64,000 bases of DNA, taken from Bacilli bacterium (GTDB taxonomy: Bacteria > Bacillota_I > Bacilli_A > ML615J-28 > CAG-313). The first letter of the stretch is position 1. Every line of letters begins with the position of its first letter. Shown here in pieces: positions 42,829 to 50,889 of this stretch. The notes under the pieces were generated by a model that was given only the letters and a program-made list of their open reading frames with translations, was not told the DNA's origin and searched no databases. The stretch spans positions 77,829-141,828 of the forward strand of contig JAFVWY010000018.1 of assembly GCA_017501465.1 (NCBI GenBank). Reading direction: 5' to 3'. The translations under genes were made by a program, and so were the position numbers.

Positions 42829-44433
42829 ATGAAAACAATTGATTTAAGTAAATACGGTATCGTTGGCGCTACTGATATTATTTACAACCCTTCTTATGAA
42901 CAATTATTCGAAGCCGAAACTGATCCAACACTTGAAGGTTATGAAAAAGGTCAAGTTACTGAACTTGGTGCAGTTAATGTAATGACTGGTGTTTACACAG
43001 GACGTTCGCCTAAGGATAAATTCATTGTTATGGATGAAAACTCAAAAGATACAGTTTGGTGGACATCAGATGAATTTAAAAATGACAATCATCCATGTAG
43101 TGAAGAAACTTGGAAAGAATTAAAGAAAATTGCTGTTAATCAATTATCTAACAAAAAATTATACGTTGTTGATGTATTCTGTGGTGCTAATAAAGACACT
43201 AGAATGGCTATTAGATTTATCATGGAAGTTGCATGGCAAGCTCACTTTGTTAAAAATATGTTTATTAACCCAACTGAAGAAGAATTAGCAAACTTTGAAC
43301 CTGATTTCGTATGTTATAATGCTTCTAAAGCAAAAGTTACTAACTATAAAGAATTAGGTTTAAACTCTGAAACTGCAGCAGTGTTTAATATTACTTCACG
43401 TGAACAAGTTATTTTAAATACTTGGTATGGTGGAGAAATGAAAAAAGGTATGTTCTCAATGATGAACTACTACTTACCATTAAAAGGTATGGCTTCAATG
43501 CATTGTAGTGCAAATACTGATATGAATGGTGAAAATACTGCTTTATTCTTTGGTTTATCAGGTACTGGTAAAACTACTTTATCAACAGACCCTAAACGTT
43601 TATTAATCGGTGATGATGAACATGGATGGGATGATAAAGGTGTATTTAACTTTGAAGGCGGATGCTACGCTAAAGTAATTAACCTTGATAAAGATTCTGA
43701 ACCAGACATCTATAGAGCAATTAAACGTAATGCATTATTAGAAAACGTTACAGTTAGTGAAGAAGGAAAAATAGATTTTGCTGATGCTTCAGTTACTGAA
43801 AATACACGTGTATCTTATCCAATTCAACACATTGAAAAGATTGTACGCCCAGTTTCTGCTGCTCCTGCTGCTAAGAATGTTATCTTCTTATCAGCTGATG
43901 CATTTGGAGTACTTCCTCCAGTTTCAATCTTAACTCCAGAACAAGCTCAATACTATTTCTTATCAGGTTTCACTTCAAAACTTGCTGGTACTGAACGTGG
44001 TATCACTGAACCAACTCCAACTTTCTCTGCATGCTTCGGTCAAGCATTCTTAGAATTACATCCAACTAAATATGCTGAAGAATTAGTTAAGAAAATGGAA
44101 GCAAGTGGTGCAAAAGCTTATCTTGTTAATACTGGTTGGAATGGTACTGGTAAACGTATCTCTATTAAAGATACAAGAGGAATTATTGATGCTATTTTAG
44201 ATGGCTCAATCTTAAAAGCTGAAACTAAAGTTATTCCTTATTTCAATTTAGCAGTTCCAACAGCACTTCCTGGTGTTGCAACTAACATCTTAGATCCTCG
44301 TGATACTTATCAAGATGCAGCTGAATGGGATAGAAAAGCTCAAGATTTAGCAGGACGTTTCGTTAAGAACTTTGCTAAATATACTGGCAATGTTGCTGGT
44401 AAAGCTTTAGTTAAAGCTGGTCCACAACTATAA
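42829..44433 (+). CDS. pckA: Phosphoenolpyruvate carboxykinase (ATP)
   Basis: Kinase-1a '[11 protein letters not shown]', 'IGDDEHGW', and the N-terminal '[12 protein letters not shown]' typical of the ATP-dependent PEPCK. 534 aa. Confidence 0.92.
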
Positions 44434-44469: not shown

Positions 44470-44516
44470 AATTGTTATATAAATATATATATGTTATAAT
44501 ACTATCGGTGATTATT

Positions 44517-45782
44517 ATGAATAAATTTTTAATTAAAACAATGACAACTATTTTAACTAGAAGTTTTAAGCCTTTTATTTTTACATCTAAATATCATAAA
44601 GTAATTGATTATGATAATGAAGTAAATTTAGGATTATATGTTCATATTCCATTTTGTGAGAAACTTTGTAGTTTTTGTCCTTATTGTAAAATGAAATATA
44701 ACAAAGATTCTGCCGAAAAATATATTAATGCGTTATTAAAAGAAATTGATTTAGTAACTTGCAATCATGCAAAAAAAGAAGTTACTAGCCTTTATTTTGG
44801 TGGAGGTACACCAACTCTTTGTGTTGAATATTTAGAAAGTATTATTAATAAATTAAAAGAGCATTTTATTATCTTAGGTGATATAGGCGTTGAACTACAC
44901 CCTAGAGATGTTAGTATTGAACTTCTTACAAAATTAAAAAGTATTGGCTTTACAATGATTAGTATTGGTATCCAATCTTTTGATATTAATTCTTTAACTT
45001 CTCTTGGTAGAAATAAAGATGAAATTGAATCAATGCATAAAAGGGTATTTGAAAGCTTAAAAGAAGTTAAATTTAATACTGTCGATATGGATTTAATCTT
45101 TGCAATTCCTAAACAAACTAAAGAAACTTTAAAGAAAGATATTGATATTGCTTTTGCAAATGGTGCTACTCAAATATCAACTTATCCATTTATTGATTTT
45201 ACTTTTGCTAATAATGAATATAAACCAATGAATAAAAAAACCAAAAAAGAAATGCTTAATATGATCGTAGATTATACAAAAGCAAATGACTTAGAAAGAA
45301 CATCGGTTTGGACATTTGGTAAAAGAAATACTACTAAGTATTCTTCTATTACAAGAGATAATTATTTGGGATTTGGACTATCTAGTGTAAGCTTATTAAA
45401 AGATTCATTTAAGGTTAATACGTTTTCTTTAAAAGAGTATATTAACAGAGTAGAACAAAATGAATTACCAACATCTTTGACAATTGATTTTACGAGAAGA
45501 CAAAGAATGGTTTATTATTTATTTTGGAAAACTTATGGTACAAGAATTTCAAAAAAAGAGTTTTTAGATTTCTTTGGTGTTAGTTTAAAAAGAATGTATG
45601 GGGTAGAATTATTTGCTGCAAAAGTACTTGGTTATATTAAAGAAACTAAAGAAGAATATGTGCTTACTAAGAAAGGTGCATATATATATCATCTGATAGA
45701 ACAAGCATATACTACAGCATATATTGATAAGATGTGGCATATATTAAGATTAGAAGCTTTTCCGGATAAAATGAAATTATAA
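44517..45782 (+). CDS. hemW: Radical SAM family protein, HemW/HemN-like (heme chaperone / oxygen-independent coproporphyrinogen-III oxidase-like)
   Basis: CxxxCxxC 'HIPFCEKLCSFCPY' and 'LYFGGGTPT'. ATG at 44517 with GGTGA RBS. The track TTG at 44472 lies inside the promoter (TGtTATAAT at 44492-44500, preceded by a short (TA)5 tract). Confidence 0.75.
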   Translation: MNKFLIKTMTTILTRSFKPFIFTSKYHKVIDYDNEVNLGLYVHIPFCEKLCSFCPYCKMKYNKDSAEKYINALLKEIDLVTCNHAKKEVTSLYFGGGTPTLCVEYLESIINKLKEHFIILGDIGVELHPRDVSIELLTKLKSIGFTMISIGIQSFDINSLTSLGRNKDEIESMHKRVFESLKEVKFNTVDMDLIFAIPKQTKETLKKDIDIAFANGATQISTYPFIDFTFANNEYKPMNKKTKKEMLNMIVDYTKANDLERTSVWTFGKRNTTKYSSITRDNYLGFGLSSVSLLKDSFKVNTFSLKEYINRVEQNELPTSLTIDFTRRQRMVYYLFWKTYGTRISKKEFLDFFGVSLKRMYGVELFAAKVLGYIKETKEEYVLTKKGAYIYHLIEQAYTTAYIDKMWHILRLEAFPDKMKL

Positions 45783-45970
45783 GTTGAAAAAATCGCTTGT
45801 ATAATGTTTTAAAACATTACGAAATAGAAAAGGTCTTCAGACCTTTTTTATTTTTGAAAACTTAAATATTTTCAAATCACTTTATATTTTTAAATAATTA
45901 TGTTAAAATAAGTTTGTACTATGGACTATTATCGTCTATTAACAAAATTACTAAAGAAAATGGTGATTGT

Positions 45971-47965
45971 ATGAAGAAAAGCTATAAAATAATGCCTGTA
46001 TTATTGTTATTAATATCAGTATCTTTAGGTGTTATTACATATATTAGTTATGAGAAAAAACATAAAATGTATACATACTTATTAGCAGCATTAATATGTT
46101 CAGTCATCTTATTGCTATCAGAATTAATAAGCCAATATCGCTTACAAAAACATATTAAACGTGGTGATTTCTACGAAAATAGATTAAAACTTTGGAATAC
46201 AATTTCTTATCGTGTTAAAAAATCTGGTGAACATGCCTTTAATGATTTACCAATTGGCATCGTGATTCTTTCTAATAAACATGAAATTATTTGGTCAAAT
46301 GATTGTGCTAAGAAGATTTTTAATAGTCAATTAAATGATATTCCACTTTCTAATATTGCTCCAATTTTAATAGAACATATAGAACTTGAACAAGAAAATT
46401 TCGTTGTAGAAATCTATGGTAATAAATATAATGTAGAGTATGACAAAAAATATAATATTTTATATTTAAGTGATATTACAGAAATTATTAAGATCCAACA
46501 AAAATATGATAATAGAATAACAGCATTAGGTTATATTAACGTCGATAACTTAGAAAACATATTATCCGATTTTGATGTACAAGAACGTGCTGAATTCATG
46601 TATAAAATTGTTAGTGAAATTGCGACATGGGTAGAAACTTTTGGAGCATATGTTCGTGCCTATAGTGATAACTCATATTTATTAGTAATGGATAAACAAC
46701 AATTACAAATGATGATCGATAATAATTTTTCAATCTTAGATTCAATTAAAGACTTGGGCCAAGGTAAGACTTTTAAAATTAGTTTGAGTATTGGTATTGC
46801 TTGTGTTGATGATAATATTGAAGTTTTGTCAAATCTTGCTAAAGAACAATTAGAACATGCTTTAAATAGAGGTGGTGACCAAGCCTCTGTTAAAATTGAT
46901 GATAAAATTAAATTCTTTGGTGCAAAAAATGATACTGCTCAAGCTGTCACTAAAGTTACTATGAGAATGAAAGCAGAAGAACTTCAAGACTTAATGAAAA
47001 ACTCAAGTGAGGTTATGGTTGTAGGTCATAGAGGAACTGATGCGGATGCTTTTGGTGCAACACTTGCTATTTATCGAATGGCAAAAGCATTAGGGAAAAA
47101 AGCATTTATCATCTTAGATAAAAATAGTATTGATTCAACGGTAACTAGAATTTATGAATCTATTCATAAAGATTACGTTGGATTATTAGATTGTATAATT
47201 ACACCACAAATGGCTCTTGCTAGAATGACAAGTGATACTTTATTGATGGTAGTTGACTGTCAAACTGTTTCACAATTATCTGAACCAAAATTAGTTAAGA
47301 AAGCTTCAAAAATTGGGGTTGTAGACCATCATAGAAGAGGCGATGATGCAATTGATAATTTATCATTCTATTTATCATCTACAGCTGCATCTTCTAGCGT
47401 TGAGTTAATTGTTCAATTATATGAATTCTTAGAAACTGAAATTGAATTTGATAAATTAGAAGCAACATGGTTATTATTAGGTATTATCGTTGATACTAAT
47501 AACTTTGTTTATAGATGTTCTGAAAAGACATTTAAAGTTGCATCAATTCTTGCTAAGTATGGTGCAAACATGACAGGTGTTAAAAAATTCTTAAAAGAAG
47601 AAATATCTGATAAAATTGCTCGAAATGAACTTATTAATGAACTTGATCAATTCCAAGGTCATGTAGGAATTGCTAAAGGTAAAGATAGTGTTATCTTTGA
47701 ACGTTCTGCTCTTGCTAAAATTAGTGATGAAATTATTTCGGTTGTTGGAATTGATGTGGGTATCACAGTTGGTAAAATTTCTAACAACACAATTGGTTTA
47801 AGTGCGAGAAGTTTAGGTACTATAAATGTTCAAATATTAATGGAACGTTTTGGTGGTGGTGGTCACTTTAATAACGCGGCTGCACAAGTTCATAGTGATA
47901 ACATTGATGAAGTTGTAAAAACATTAAAACAATATATCGATGAATATATTGAGAAAGAGGAAAAC
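45971..47965 (+). CDS. gdpP: Cyclic-di-AMP phosphodiesterase GdpP (2 TM, PAS, degenerate GGDEF, DHH, DHHA1). It has no stop codon of its own and reads through in frame into rplI.
   Basis: TM helices. DHH motif 'VVGHRGTDADAFGA'. DHHA1 'ERFGGGGHFNNAAAQ'. ATG at 45971 (GGTGA RBS) preferred over the track start at 45914. The frame is continuous to 48412. Confidence 0.8.
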
Positions 47966-48412
47966 ATGAAAGTTATTCTTATTAAAGACGTTAAAGGTCA
48001 TGGTAAAAAAGGTGAAATTATTGACTTTAATTTAGGCTTTGCAAATCACTTAATTAGAAGTGGACAAGCAATTGCTGTTACTGATGAAAACTTAAAACGT
48101 TTAGATGAACAAAAGAAACAAGCAGAAATCGAAGAAGAAAAGAAAGTTCAAGAAATGAAAGAACTTAAGAAAATTATCGAAGAAACTCCTATTAAATTCC
48201 CTGTAAAAGTTGGTAGTGAAGGTCGTTTATTTGGTTCTATTAATACTAAACAAATTGTTGATACTTTCCAAAAAGAAACTGGTAAAGTTTTAAATAAACA
48301 AAATATTAAACTTGACAAGAATATTAATGCTTTAGGTACTTATCAAATTCCAATTGATTTATATAAAGGTATTAAAGCAAACATTACTCTATATGTAGTT
48401 GAAAAGGAGTAA
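47966..48412 (+). CDS. rplI: 50S ribosomal protein L9
   Basis: MKVILIKDVKGHGKKGEIIDFNLGFANHLIRSGQAIAVT... with own RBS GAGAAAGAGG 5 nt upstream. It is in the same frame as gdpP with no intervening stop. Confidence 0.88.
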   Translation: MKVILIKDVKGHGKKGEIIDFNLGFANHLIRSGQAIAVTDENLKRLDEQKKQAEIEEEKKVQEMKELKKIIEETPIKFPVKVGSEGRLFGSINTKQIVDTFQKETGKVLNKQNIKLDKNINALGTYQIPIDLYKGIKANITLYVVEKE

Positions 48413-48415
48413 TAT

Positions 48416-49813
48416 ATGGCAAGTTATGAAAACTTATATAATAATGTTGCTGAACGTTATGTATTAGGTAGTATTTTAATTGATGCTAATGTCATGAATG
48501 GTGTTAGTGGAACTTTAAGTGTTAATGATTTTTATAATGAAGATAACAGAAAAGTATATGAAGCAATGTTAAGTTTATTTAAGAATCAATCACCGATTGA
48601 AGTATTACTTTTAATTGATGAATTAAAAAGATTGAATTTATCTTTGACAATTGATCCTAAAGAGTTTTTATTAGGTTTGACTGATGAAGTTCCGACAACT
48701 GCAAATACTGAATTATATGTTAATTTAGTAAAAGACAAAGCAATTGAAAGAGAATTACACAGAATCTTAAATGAAATTAATAGTGATATTTTGTCTAGTA
48801 AATTAGAATTTAATAGTTTACTTGATAAAACAGAAGATAAGATTTTAGGTATTATCAAAAACAGAAGAACTAGTGAACTTTTAACTATCGACCAAGCTGC
48901 TAGAAGAGTATATAGTAAAATCGAAACTTTCTCTAAAGGAGATGGTGAAGTAAATGGGGTTGAAACTGGCTATCCAGCATTAGATAGAGCAACTCTTGGT
49001 TTTCAAAAAGGTGATTTAATTATTTTAGCTGCACGTCCTTCTGTTGGTAAGAGTGCTTTTGCTTTAAACTTAGCAGTTAACGCATGTCGAAAAAAAGTAA
49101 ATTCTGTTGCTTTCTTTAGTTTAGAAATGAGTATTGAACAATTAATGATGAGACTATTTAGTTATGAATCATCAATACCAATGTCTAAACTTCAAAAAGG
49201 TGAATTAAGTGATCAAGAAATGATTATTCTTGGTCGTAGTAGAAATTCACTTGCTAAATATAATATTTATTTTGATGAATCAAACTCAACAAATGTGTAT
49301 GACATTAGAACTAAATGTCGTCAATTAAAACAACAAGGTAACCTTGATTTAGTAATCATTGACTACTTACAATTAATTACAAGCGAAGGAAAAGGTAGCC
49401 GTCAAGAAGAAGTTGCTGCCATTTCACGTGCATTAAAAATTCTTGCAAAAGAACTTGATGTTCCAGTTATTGCTTTATCACAGTTATCACGTAACGTCGA
49501 AACTCGTGAAGATAAAACACCAGTTTTATCTGACTTACGTGAATCTGGTTCTATCGAACAAGATGCCGATATCGTAATGTTCTTACATCGACCAGAAGAT
49601 AGCAATAAGAAAGAACGTGAAGAAGAAGAAGTAGTTGAAGCTGCAAGTGTTGGCTTAGATACATCAGAAAAATTAATTGAATTAGTTATCGCTAAGAACC
49701 GTCAAGGTGCATTAAGTAATATTAAATATAACTTCTTCCCTGCTGAATGTAGATTTAGAGAAGTTAAACATATTACTCGCAAAAAACCAAATTATCATAA
49801 TATTGAAGAATAG
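48416..49813 (+). CDS. dnaB: Replicative DNA helicase (DnaB family; DnaC in Bacillus nomenclature)
   Basis: Walker A 'AARPSVGKSAFALNLA', 'LIIIDYLQLI', 465 aa, in the conserved position after rplI. Confidence 0.92.
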   Translation: MASYENLYNNVAERYVLGSILIDANVMNGVSGTLSVNDFYNEDNRKVYEAMLSLFKNQSPIEVLLLIDELKRLNLSLTIDPKEFLLGLTDEVPTTANTELYVNLVKDKAIERELHRILNEINSDILSSKLEFNSLLDKTEDKILGIIKNRRTSELLTIDQAARRVYSKIETFSKGDGEVNGVETGYPALDRATLGFQKGDLIILAARPSVGKSAFALNLAVNACRKKVNSVAFFSLEMSIEQLMMRLFSYESSIPMSKLQKGELSDQEMIILGRSRNSLAKYNIYFDESNSTNVYDIRTKCRQLKQQGNLDLVIIDYLQLITSEGKGSRQEEVAAISRALKILAKELDVPVIALSQLSRNVETREDKTPVLSDLRESGSIEQDADIVMFLHRPEDSNKKEREEEEVVEAASVGLDTSEKLIELVIAKNRQGALSNIKYNFFPAECRFREVKHITRKKPNYHNIEE

Positions 49814-49824
49814 GAGTTTTTAAA

Positions 49825-50889
49825 ATGAAAGATCGTTTAGAAGTTATTGCTAATAGATATAATCAAATAAACGAAATGTTACTAGATATTAACATTGTTA
49901 GTGATATCAAAAAACTAACTGAATTATCTAAAGAACAACGTTCTCTTGAAAAGATTGTAGTAAAATATAAAGAACTTCAAGAGTTAGAAGCTAACATTTT
50001 AGAAGCTAAAGAATTACTTCATGATTCTGATGAAGAATTAAGAAGTATGGCTGAACTTCAATTAGAAGAAGCTAAAGAAAGAATTGAAGTAGTTGAACAA
50101 GAATTAAAAATTCTTTTAATCCCTAAAGATCCTAATGATGAAAAGAACGTTATTATGGAAATTAGAGGAGCTGCTGGTGGAGACGAAGGTAACATTTTTG
50201 CTGGTGACTTATTTAGAATGTATTTTAAATATGCTGAATCAAAAGGATGGAAAATTGAAGTTGTAGATTCTCTTGCATGTGAAGCGGGTGGATATACACA
50301 AATTAGTTTCATGGTATCTGGTGATTCTGTTTATTCATATTTAAAATATGAATCTGGATCACACCGTGTTCAAAGAGTGCCAAGTACTGAATCTGCTGGT
50401 AGAATTCACACATCAACTGCCACAGTTTTAGTAATGCCTGAAGCTGATGAATTAGAAGTAAATTTAGATTTAAATGATGTTAGAATAGATACTTTCTGTG
50501 CATCAGGTCCTGGTGGACAATGTGTAAATACAACAAAGTCTGCAATTCGTGTAACACACATTCCTACTGGAATTGTGGTATCTTGTCAAGATGGTAAGAG
50601 TCAACACGAAAATAAAGCAAGTGCTTTAAAAGTATTACAAGCAAGATTATATGACTTTATGTTGCAACAAAAACAAGATGCCGAAGGTGCTGAAAGACTT
50701 GCTAAAGTTGGACATGGTGATAGAAGTGAAAAAATTCGTACTTATAACTATCCACAAAACAGAGTTACAGATCATAGAATCGGTTTTACTATCCAACAAT
50801 TAGATAGAGTTATGGAAGGAAAACTTGATCCTGTTATTGATGCTTTAATAGCAGAAGATCAAAAGAAAGCTTTAAGTGTAGAAGAATAA
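49825..50889 (+). CDS. prfA: Peptide chain release factor 1
   Basis: GGQ motif 'SGPGGQCVNTT' and the RF1-type tripeptide P-S-T in 'RVQRVPSTESAGRIHTSTATV'. Followed by prmC. Confidence 0.92.
   Translation: MKDRLEVIANRYNQINEMLLDINIVSDIKKLTELSKEQRSLEKIVVKYKELQELEANILEAKELLHDSDEELRSMAELQLEEAKERIEVVEQELKILLIPKDPNDEKNVIMEIRGAAGGDEGNIFAGDLFRMYFKYAESKGWKIEVVDSLACEAGGYTQISFMVSGDSVYSYLKYESGSHRVQRVPSTESAGRIHTSTATVLVMPEADELEVNLDLNDVRIDTFCASGPGGQCVNTTKSAIRVTHIPTGIVVSCQDGKSQHENKASALKVLQARLYDFMLQQKQDAEGAERLAKVGHGDRSEKIRTYNYPQNRVTDHRIGFTIQQLDRVMEGKLDPVIDALIAEDQKKALSVEE

Follow-up and report, generated by a model that had tools for sequence, protein, structure and literature searches.

An ancient gdpP–rplI gene fusion in Bacilli that probably yields both a membrane-anchored GdpP–L9 protein and free ribosomal protein L9

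What does a cell make from a gene in which a cyclic di-AMP (c-di-AMP) phosphodiesterase runs straight into a ribosomal protein? This question is raised by positions 45971–48412 of the 64,000-nucleotide stretch of contig JAFVWY010000018.1 analysed here (the window), which comes from the metagenome-assembled genome (MAG) of an uncultured gut 'Bacilli bacterium' (GCA_017501465.1). Here gdpP and rplI, the gene for ribosomal protein L9, occupy a single frame on the plus strand. Comparison with related genomes shows this to be an ancient gene fusion. We consider it likely that its one open reading frame (ORF) gives rise to two proteins, a membrane-anchored GdpP–L9 and free L9, and unlikely that the fused L9 domain is neutral.

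The window sequence and the ORF list both bear out the original prediction that gdpP and rplI share one frame without an intervening stop. The frame has 813 codons, and no in-frame TAA, TAG or TGA occurs from the gdpP ATG at 45971 up to the TAA at 48410–48412. The list gives a single ORF of 832 residues (45914–48412), counted from an upstream TTG; the 813-residue form that begins at ATG 45971 is an exact match to the deposited protein MBR2892077.1. At the junction, the codons GAT GAA TAT ATT GAG AAA GAG GAA AAC ATG AAA GTT ATT encode ...DEYIEKEEN-MKVILIK..., and the junction-spanning peptide of a read-through product is predicted to be ...EENMK / ...YIEKEENMKVILIK. The coordinates, peptide sequences and ribosome-binding-site string of the original prediction were all correct.

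Is the fusion real? Bacillus-type operons have separate gdpP and rplI genes, as do the split outgroups described below, and from these one would expect a priori that the two genes are truly separate here too, with the gdpP stop lost through a base-call error, an assembly error or a strain-specific mutation. However, the identical 813-residue sequence is present on nine contigs from different archives (NCBI, Logan and ENA). In a protein search the best 120 clusters ranged from 89% down to 41% identity to it; 116 of these were 800–848 residues long, nearly all had the same six domains, and the junction showed no length variation in almost all of those aligned. We also scanned one genome per species, checking the frame and its stop codons at each of 80 loci. 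A single stop-free gdpP–L9 frame was found at 67 loci, a fusion with a free rplI directly downstream at seven, and split genes at six. Thus, where a stop codon at the homologous position in relatives had been proposed as a check, the opposite was seen: the junction is stop-free, with the same linker length, in 74 of the 80 species genomes and in about 116 of the best protein clusters, down to 41% identity. In addition, the family is curated as NF011110, and the fusion is flagged in finished genomes (PMC4014445). These data refute the sequencing error or recent point mutation that had been offered as an alternative, and we regard an artefact as next to impossible.

Going by their record titles, the fused loci belong to Acholeplasmataceae, Anaeroplasmataceae, Izemoplasmatales and Liberiplasma, and to many gut "Bacilli bacterium" MAGs. 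Four of the six split loci belong to an outgroup, Carnobacteriaceae (Lactobacillales), with Alkalibacterium among the split outgroups. The other two (L063 and L078) are sister to the whole fused clade in an unbootstrapped neighbour-joining (NJ) tree of the DHH–DHHA1 region, so that the split state occurs in only 2 of 76 ingroup loci, both basal. Judged by these sequence comparisons, the gdpP–rplI fusion is genuine, anciently fixed and characteristic of the Acholeplasma/Anaeroplasma/Phytoplasma/Izemoplasma-like (wall-less) branch of Bacilli. Several related MAG records carry titles (Prevotella sp., Bacteroidales, Staphylococcaceae, Clostridium sp.) that look like wrong labels on Acholeplasma- or Anaeroplasma-like genomes.

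Both halves of the fusion ORF (45971–48412, plus strand, including the TAA at 48410–48412) have the features of complete proteins. Pfam places six domains, all above their gathering scores, in the one 813-residue product. An N-terminal anchor of two hydrophobic helices typical of GdpP (residues ~7–27 and ~33–55; 45980–46138) is apparent in the translation and corresponds to helices 4–28 and 34–91 of an AlphaFold2 (AF2) model. It is followed by a PAS_GdpP domain (residues 82–169; 46214–46477; PF21370, E = 4.9e-14, 52.9 bits against a cutoff of 27) and a degenerate, GdpP-type GGDEF_GdpP domain (residues 189–313; 46535–46909; PF24898, E = 1.2e-25, 90.7 bits against a cutoff of 30). The phosphodiesterase module (residues 348–657; 47012–47941) comprises a DHH domain (residues 348–505; PF01368) and a DHHA1 domain (residues 577–657; PF02272), both over their cutoffs. 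Its DxD, D, DHH and GGGH catalytic motifs are intact, and H353, D357, D359, D429, D452-H453-H454 and G629-G631-H632 are invariant among 70 sequences; the domain matches and these motifs agree with the original prediction of an intact DHH/DHHA1 pair. This part matches c-di-AMP phosphodiesterase structures in the PDB (9n0l_A, 4.7e-65; 5xsi_A, 1.2e-64). By its predicted anchor, its PAS and GGDEF domains and its DHH/DHHA1 module, the first part of the protein is assigned to the c-di-AMP phosphodiesterase GdpP (YybT).

The second part (residues 666–813; 47966–48409) has the N-domain, long connecting helix and C-domain of bL9, as judged by TIGR00158 and by its alignment to residues 1–148 of Geobacillus L9 (1div_A, 4e-27). 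Pfam assigns Ribosomal_L9_N to residues 666–711 (PF01281) and Ribosomal_L9_C to residues 727–811 (PF03948). On TIGR00158 the L9 part scores 109.2 bits alone and 103.1 bits within the fusion, where the cutoff is 58.6, and by this sequence score it qualifies as bL9 above the curated equivalog threshold. Among the PDB matches listed, no L9 structure has a large N-terminal extension comparable to GdpP.

The AF2 model of the whole fusion (mean predicted local distance difference test score (pLDDT) 83.9, predicted template modelling score 0.43) places a canonical L9 module, with secondary structure that fits the L9 fold, behind a short hinge. This hinge (residues 662–664; 47954–47962) lies between the last DHHA1 helix and strand 1 of L9, and is one of only two segments with a pLDDT below 50. 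The model thus shows the L9 part as a predicted independent module behind a flexible hinge of three residues.

Which products would this gene give? Because the sequence is stop-free, a read-through product follows directly: ribosomes that start at the gdpP ATG (45971) would have to continue to 48412, which would give the 813-residue GdpP–L9 with its two transmembrane helices. Within the same frame, the linker codons for E-K-E-E contain a Shine–Dalgarno (SD)-like sequence, GAGAAAGAGG (47951–47960), whose GAGG core (47957–47960) lies 5 nucleotides upstream of the L9 ATG (47966–47968). Two of the three Glu codons in this linker are GAG, compared to 6.4% (63 of 983) of Glu codons across the window. 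If ribosomes also start here (47957–47968), as the comparison with relatives suggests, they would make a free L9 of 148 residues for the ribosome.

The internal start signals are conserved across the single-copy fusions (n = 68, the 67 loci and the window). Codon 1 of L9 is ATG in 66 and GTG in two of the 68. Some relatives in the protein databases have Val at this position, and five further DNAs were fetched so that the codon could be read. Val at L9 codon 1 proved to be GTG in all seven cases examined, although GTG makes up only 2–7% of the Val codons in those genes. As Val is always GTG, codon 1 is constrained as a start codon rather than as a particular amino acid. An SD motif (GGAG, GAGG or AGGA at −17 to −4) precedes it in 64 of the 68, compared to 6.5% of background codon positions. 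The duplex with the anti-SD sequence has a median free energy (ΔG) of −9.9 kcal/mol at the junction and −1.6 kcal/mol at background positions, and the junction ranks, at the median, in the top 0.6% of its own ORF. In contrast, the linker peptide is variable (EKEEN, AEEEN, QEEKP, DDGDEK, YVEGG, GRMSV and KGEKI). GAG accounts for 50% of Glu codons in the linker, compared to 19% in the rest of the gene (Fisher p = 6.5e-14). An in-frame start codon and an SD at the correct spacing are thus conserved, and appear to be selected at the nucleotide level.

These data bear on a polyprotein reading, by which translation gives only the full-length fusion and L9 is released by proteolysis at the short hinge. 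The low-confidence hinge of three residues between two well-folded modules in the AF2 model would suit such an arrangement. However, the amino acids of the linker are not conserved, which makes a specific cleavage site unlikely; conservation is seen instead in the nucleotides of the SD and the start codon. Cleavage would also tie the output of L9 to gdpP expression. We regard processing of this kind as very improbable.

A second way to dispense with internal initiation is that the fusion is the only product. L9 would then be dispensable, or would enter the ribosome only as the tail of GdpP, with some ribosomes tethered to the membrane and most lacking L9. Three points would suit this reading: the sequence makes the read-through product unavoidable, some Mollicutes can do without L9 (PMC4014445), and the fused L9 domain is under selection even beside a free copy (see below). 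Against it, the start codon is kept (Val by GTG only), the SD is kept by synonymous codon choice, and both are lost precisely where a separate rplI exists; without initiation such signals would have no purpose. Furthermore, a low-abundance membrane protein could not provide stoichiometric amounts of L9. We therefore judge a fusion-only outcome to be improbable.

The genomes with a separate rplI provide a natural control for the dual-product reading that we favour. In all seven, the fused copy lacks the SD (0 of 7), with ΔG from −2.4 to +0.6 kcal/mol at the 28th–83rd percentile, and in six of the seven its start codon has been lost (ATT, AAG in three, ACT and TTA), while the free copy has an ATG and an SD. 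Start and SD are thus kept when L9 is single-copy and lost when a free rplI is present. This comparison supports the original prediction of a fusion polypeptide alongside free L9, and we conclude that free L9 is very probably also made from the internal start.

Could the free L9 of close relatives come instead from a separate gene? We found no free rplI in the close relatives when the best two full-length, 148-residue matches (P0121 and P0124) were inspected. The P0124 match and one copy of P0121 were rejected as free rplI genes, their contigs beginning just upstream of the ATG; a second copy of P0121 was rejected as it lies on a scaffold with a gap of 100 Ns inside gdpP, across which the frame is still continuous. 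A further match (P0126), on a 1.6-kb contig, was outside the inspected set.

Several points weigh against a dual-product ORF. The SD at the junction of the window itself is only moderate: its ΔG is −5.9 kcal/mol (the median for 39 gene starts in the window is −7.1, and the gdpP start itself has −5.8), which puts it among the best 5.3% of positions within the ORF. The compared species are related, so that the combined p-values overstate independence, and the NJ tree has no support values, which leaves the number of independent duplications of rplI uncertain. Although there is no second copy of L9 within the 64-kb window, 64 kb cannot show its absence from the genome. Literature searches turned up no protein, ribosome-profiling (Ribo-seq) or transcript data, from any organism, on either product. 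A structural requirement of the L9 N-domain could also account for part of the conservation of Met1; however, the exclusive use of GTG for Val and the synonymous bias towards GAG argue against this.

How might such a gene have arisen? In the split relatives the rplI SD lies within the last codons of gdpP, and the gdpP stop is 1–3 nucleotides before the rplI ATG (TAG-A-ATG in L078 and TAG-TTT-ATG in L063). The adjacency of gdpP and rplI had been described as the conserved Bacillus arrangement, and its occurrence in Alkalibacterium and in a Carnobacteriaceae genome, both of them split outgroups, bears out that it is ancestral. We propose that in the ancestral operon the rplI SD lay inside the end of gdpP, with the gdpP stop between this SD and the rplI ATG. 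A single substitution of that in-frame stop would then have created the fusion and left the initiation signals of rplI untouched. The locus would be an example of a gene fusion that retains the initiation signals of its downstream gene, for which the rplI-duplicated lineages serve as the control.

If one substitution is enough, is the L9 tail of GdpP of any use? The seven two-copy loci (L019, L023, L024, L029, L033, L069 and L073) carry a diverged L9 on GdpP (L9') and a canonical free rplI directly downstream; in L023, for example, the fused L9' is at 4915–5355 and the free rplI at 5383–5823. The two-copy state occurs at three separate places on the NJ tree, which carries no support values, and in each the fused L9' remains a full-length open frame. 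The nearest sequences to both L9 copies are fused L9s from the same clade, consistent with a local (tandem) duplication of the L9 part. The GYANFL motif is absent from L9' but kept by the free copy. In the clade of L023, L024 and L073, the ratio of nonsynonymous to synonymous substitution rates (dN/dS) is 0.27–0.32 for the fused L9', compared to 0.12–0.16 for the free L9 and 0.10–0.15 for DHH–DHHA1. These ratios indicate that the fused L9' is under relaxed but still purifying selection.

These data can be set against a neutral reading, by which the internal start supplies free L9, whereas the tail on GdpP is functionless and merely tolerated, loss of the stop having done no harm. A single point mutation could produce the fusion where the stop lies between SD and ATG, as in L063 (TAG 3 nucleotides before the ATG), and in two-copy lineages the fused L9' evolves at about double the rate of free L9 and lacks GYANFL. 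Yet the fusion has been stable over a deep clade in which a single mutation could restore the stop, and the split state is confined to 2 of 76 ingroup loci, both basal. L9' is also full-length, with a dN/dS of about 0.3 and not about 1, in apparently three two-copy lineages. We consider a purely neutral tail possible, though on the whole doubtful. Retention of a redundant L9' at full length with a dN/dS of about 0.3 points instead to selection of the L9 tail for some role. The L9 domain on GdpP is thus unlikely to be a neutral appendage, having been kept under purifying selection where a separate rplI was regained.

What that role might be is a more tentative matter. It is conceivable, though rather unlikely, that L9 on GdpP is a working module that lets the phosphodiesterase dock at the bL9 site on 50S subunits or compete for it, or that senses ribosomes in some other way. 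If so, the turnover of c-di-AMP would be coupled to the state of translation, or to ribosomes near the membrane, throughout the Acholeplasma/Phytoplasma/Anaeroplasma/Izemoplasma clade, with bulk L9 coming from the internal start, and the duplicated lineages with a start-less L9' would represent subfunctionalisation. Engagement of ribosomes by the fused L9 would physically connect the translation machinery with a phosphodiesterase that acts on a second messenger.

Two kinds of known systems resemble this locus. Initiation at internal, in-frame starts gives two proteins from one ORF in Escherichia coli infB (the IF2 isoforms), clpB and cheA. The gene described here likewise has an internal SD and start, and its predicted long and short products share a C-terminus. 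The difference is that here the short product would be a complete, pre-existing ribosomal protein and its start a relic of a separate gene, with both products predicted from sequence. In the eukaryotic ubiquitin–ribosomal protein fusions UBA52 and RPS27A, specific proteolysis occurs after a conserved Gly-Gly. There too a ribosomal protein is encoded at the C-terminal end of a fusion whose other partner is unrelated, but in the present case the protein sequence of the linker is unconserved and the nucleotide initiation signals are conserved. Compared to canonical GdpP (YybT) with a separate rplI, as in the gdpP-rplI-dnaC operon of Bacillus and Staphylococcus, the domains, catalytic motifs, neighbours and gene order are the same; the differences are that no stop lies between the genes, and that the SD and start of rplI are internal to the ORF.

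The gdpP–L9 fusion itself is already known, as a named family. The window protein (residues 29–812) aligns in one stretch with positions 50–835 of the 838 in NCBIfam model NF011110 (CDD PRK14538), 'putative bifunctional signaling protein/50S ribosomal protein L9' (E = 1.3e-191). It has the same full-length architecture as this family, and the order gdpP–L9, dnaB, prfA is also the same. However, its score of 638.9 bits is under the curated equivalog cutoff of 707, which suggests that it comes from a more distant lineage than the seeds of the model; we therefore group it with this kind of fusion without calling it an equivalog of the seeds.

In published work, rplI homologues are flagged "ACL_0196 fusion" in Acholeplasma laidlawii and "PAM012 fusion" and "PA0149 fusion" in two phytoplasmas (Grosjean et al. 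2014, PMC4014445, Table S3). The fusion-flagged gene is the sole rplI entry listed for each of these complete genomes, and its partner is unnamed in the table (PMC4014445); the fusions listed there are apparently of the type described here. Apart from these flags in Table S3 (PMC4014445), we found no paper on what the fusion does or how it is expressed. A paper on GdpP of M. bovis concerns a species in which L9 is annotated separately, as Mbov_0277 (PMC10720645). The present analysis makes modest additions to this: a comparative case for a dual-product ORF, and the rplI-duplicated lineages with a start-less L9' on GdpP.

The fusion has consequences for annotation. MBR2892077.1 was deposited as "MAG: 50S ribosomal protein L9 [Bacilli bacterium]" for the whole 813 residues, a name that hides GdpP; the original prediction had rightly anticipated that annotation of the c-di-AMP phosphodiesterase would be affected. 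GdpP of this organism is thus invisible to name-based searches, and surveys of c-di-AMP signalling can miss the GdpP of the clade, just as surveys of ribosomal proteins can mis-size L9. Annotation should list two products, or at least use a bifunctional name.

Three other explanations for features of the junction were tried, and none was supported. An alternative genetic code or recoding was rejected, since the stretch that joins the two parts contains none of the three stop codons. In relatives the fused gene terminates at TAA, TAG or TGA, so that the standard code 11 applies, and TGG encodes Trp. A regulatory RNA structure at the junction was rejected on its minimum free energy of −12.1 kcal/mol (z = −0.23 compared to shuffled sequences), and Rfam gave no matches in 45500–48600, even at E ≤ 1. 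An internal promoter for rplI inside gdpP gained no support, as 20 promoter-like matches were found where 19.3 were expected from shuffled sequences.

The genes around the fusion all lie on the plus strand. Upstream are a gene for PEP (phosphoenolpyruvate) carboxykinase (42829–44433) and a radical-SAM gene (44472–45782), followed by a palindromic, GC-containing hairpin (45828–45847) and a T-run, found in a terminator scan. Although the scan assigned this hairpin to the minus strand, it is palindromic, with the T-run visible on the plus strand. It is a likely terminator of the radical-SAM gene, and gdpP–L9 would therefore begin a new transcription unit. In some relatives, as in Bacillus, rpsF-ssb-rpsR lies directly 5' of gdpP–L9-dnaB-prfA (L085, 225–1285; L087, 229–1301); the window differs in having the PEP carboxykinase gene, the radical-SAM gene and the terminator hairpin in their place.

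Downstream are dnaB (48416–49813) and prfA (49825–50889). The SD of dnaB, AAGGAG (48404–48409), lies within the final codons of L9 (GAA AAG GAG), and is followed by the TAA, 3 nucleotides, and the dnaB ATG at 48416. This packing resembles that of the gdpP/L9 junction and its presumed layout before fusion. The dnaB ATG is in another frame, however, so loss of the stop at this junction alone would not fuse the genes.

Further upstream in the window, five very large ORFs (2499, 779, 951, 1146 and 1645 residues) lie in a row on the plus strand at 3347–24466. The ORF of 2499 residues combines a subtilase (Peptidase_S8 with a PA domain) with BspA-type leucine-rich repeats and Big_2. The others contain Ig-like (Big_3, Ig_3) or Listeria–Bacteroides repeat domains, except for the ORF of 779 residues, which has no Pfam match. 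This run is probably a cluster of surface proteins or adhesins. All the large, gene-like ORFs of the window are on the plus strand; only four ORFs of at least 100 residues are on the minus strand, each nested in a longer plus-strand ORF. The G+C content of the window is 28.2%.

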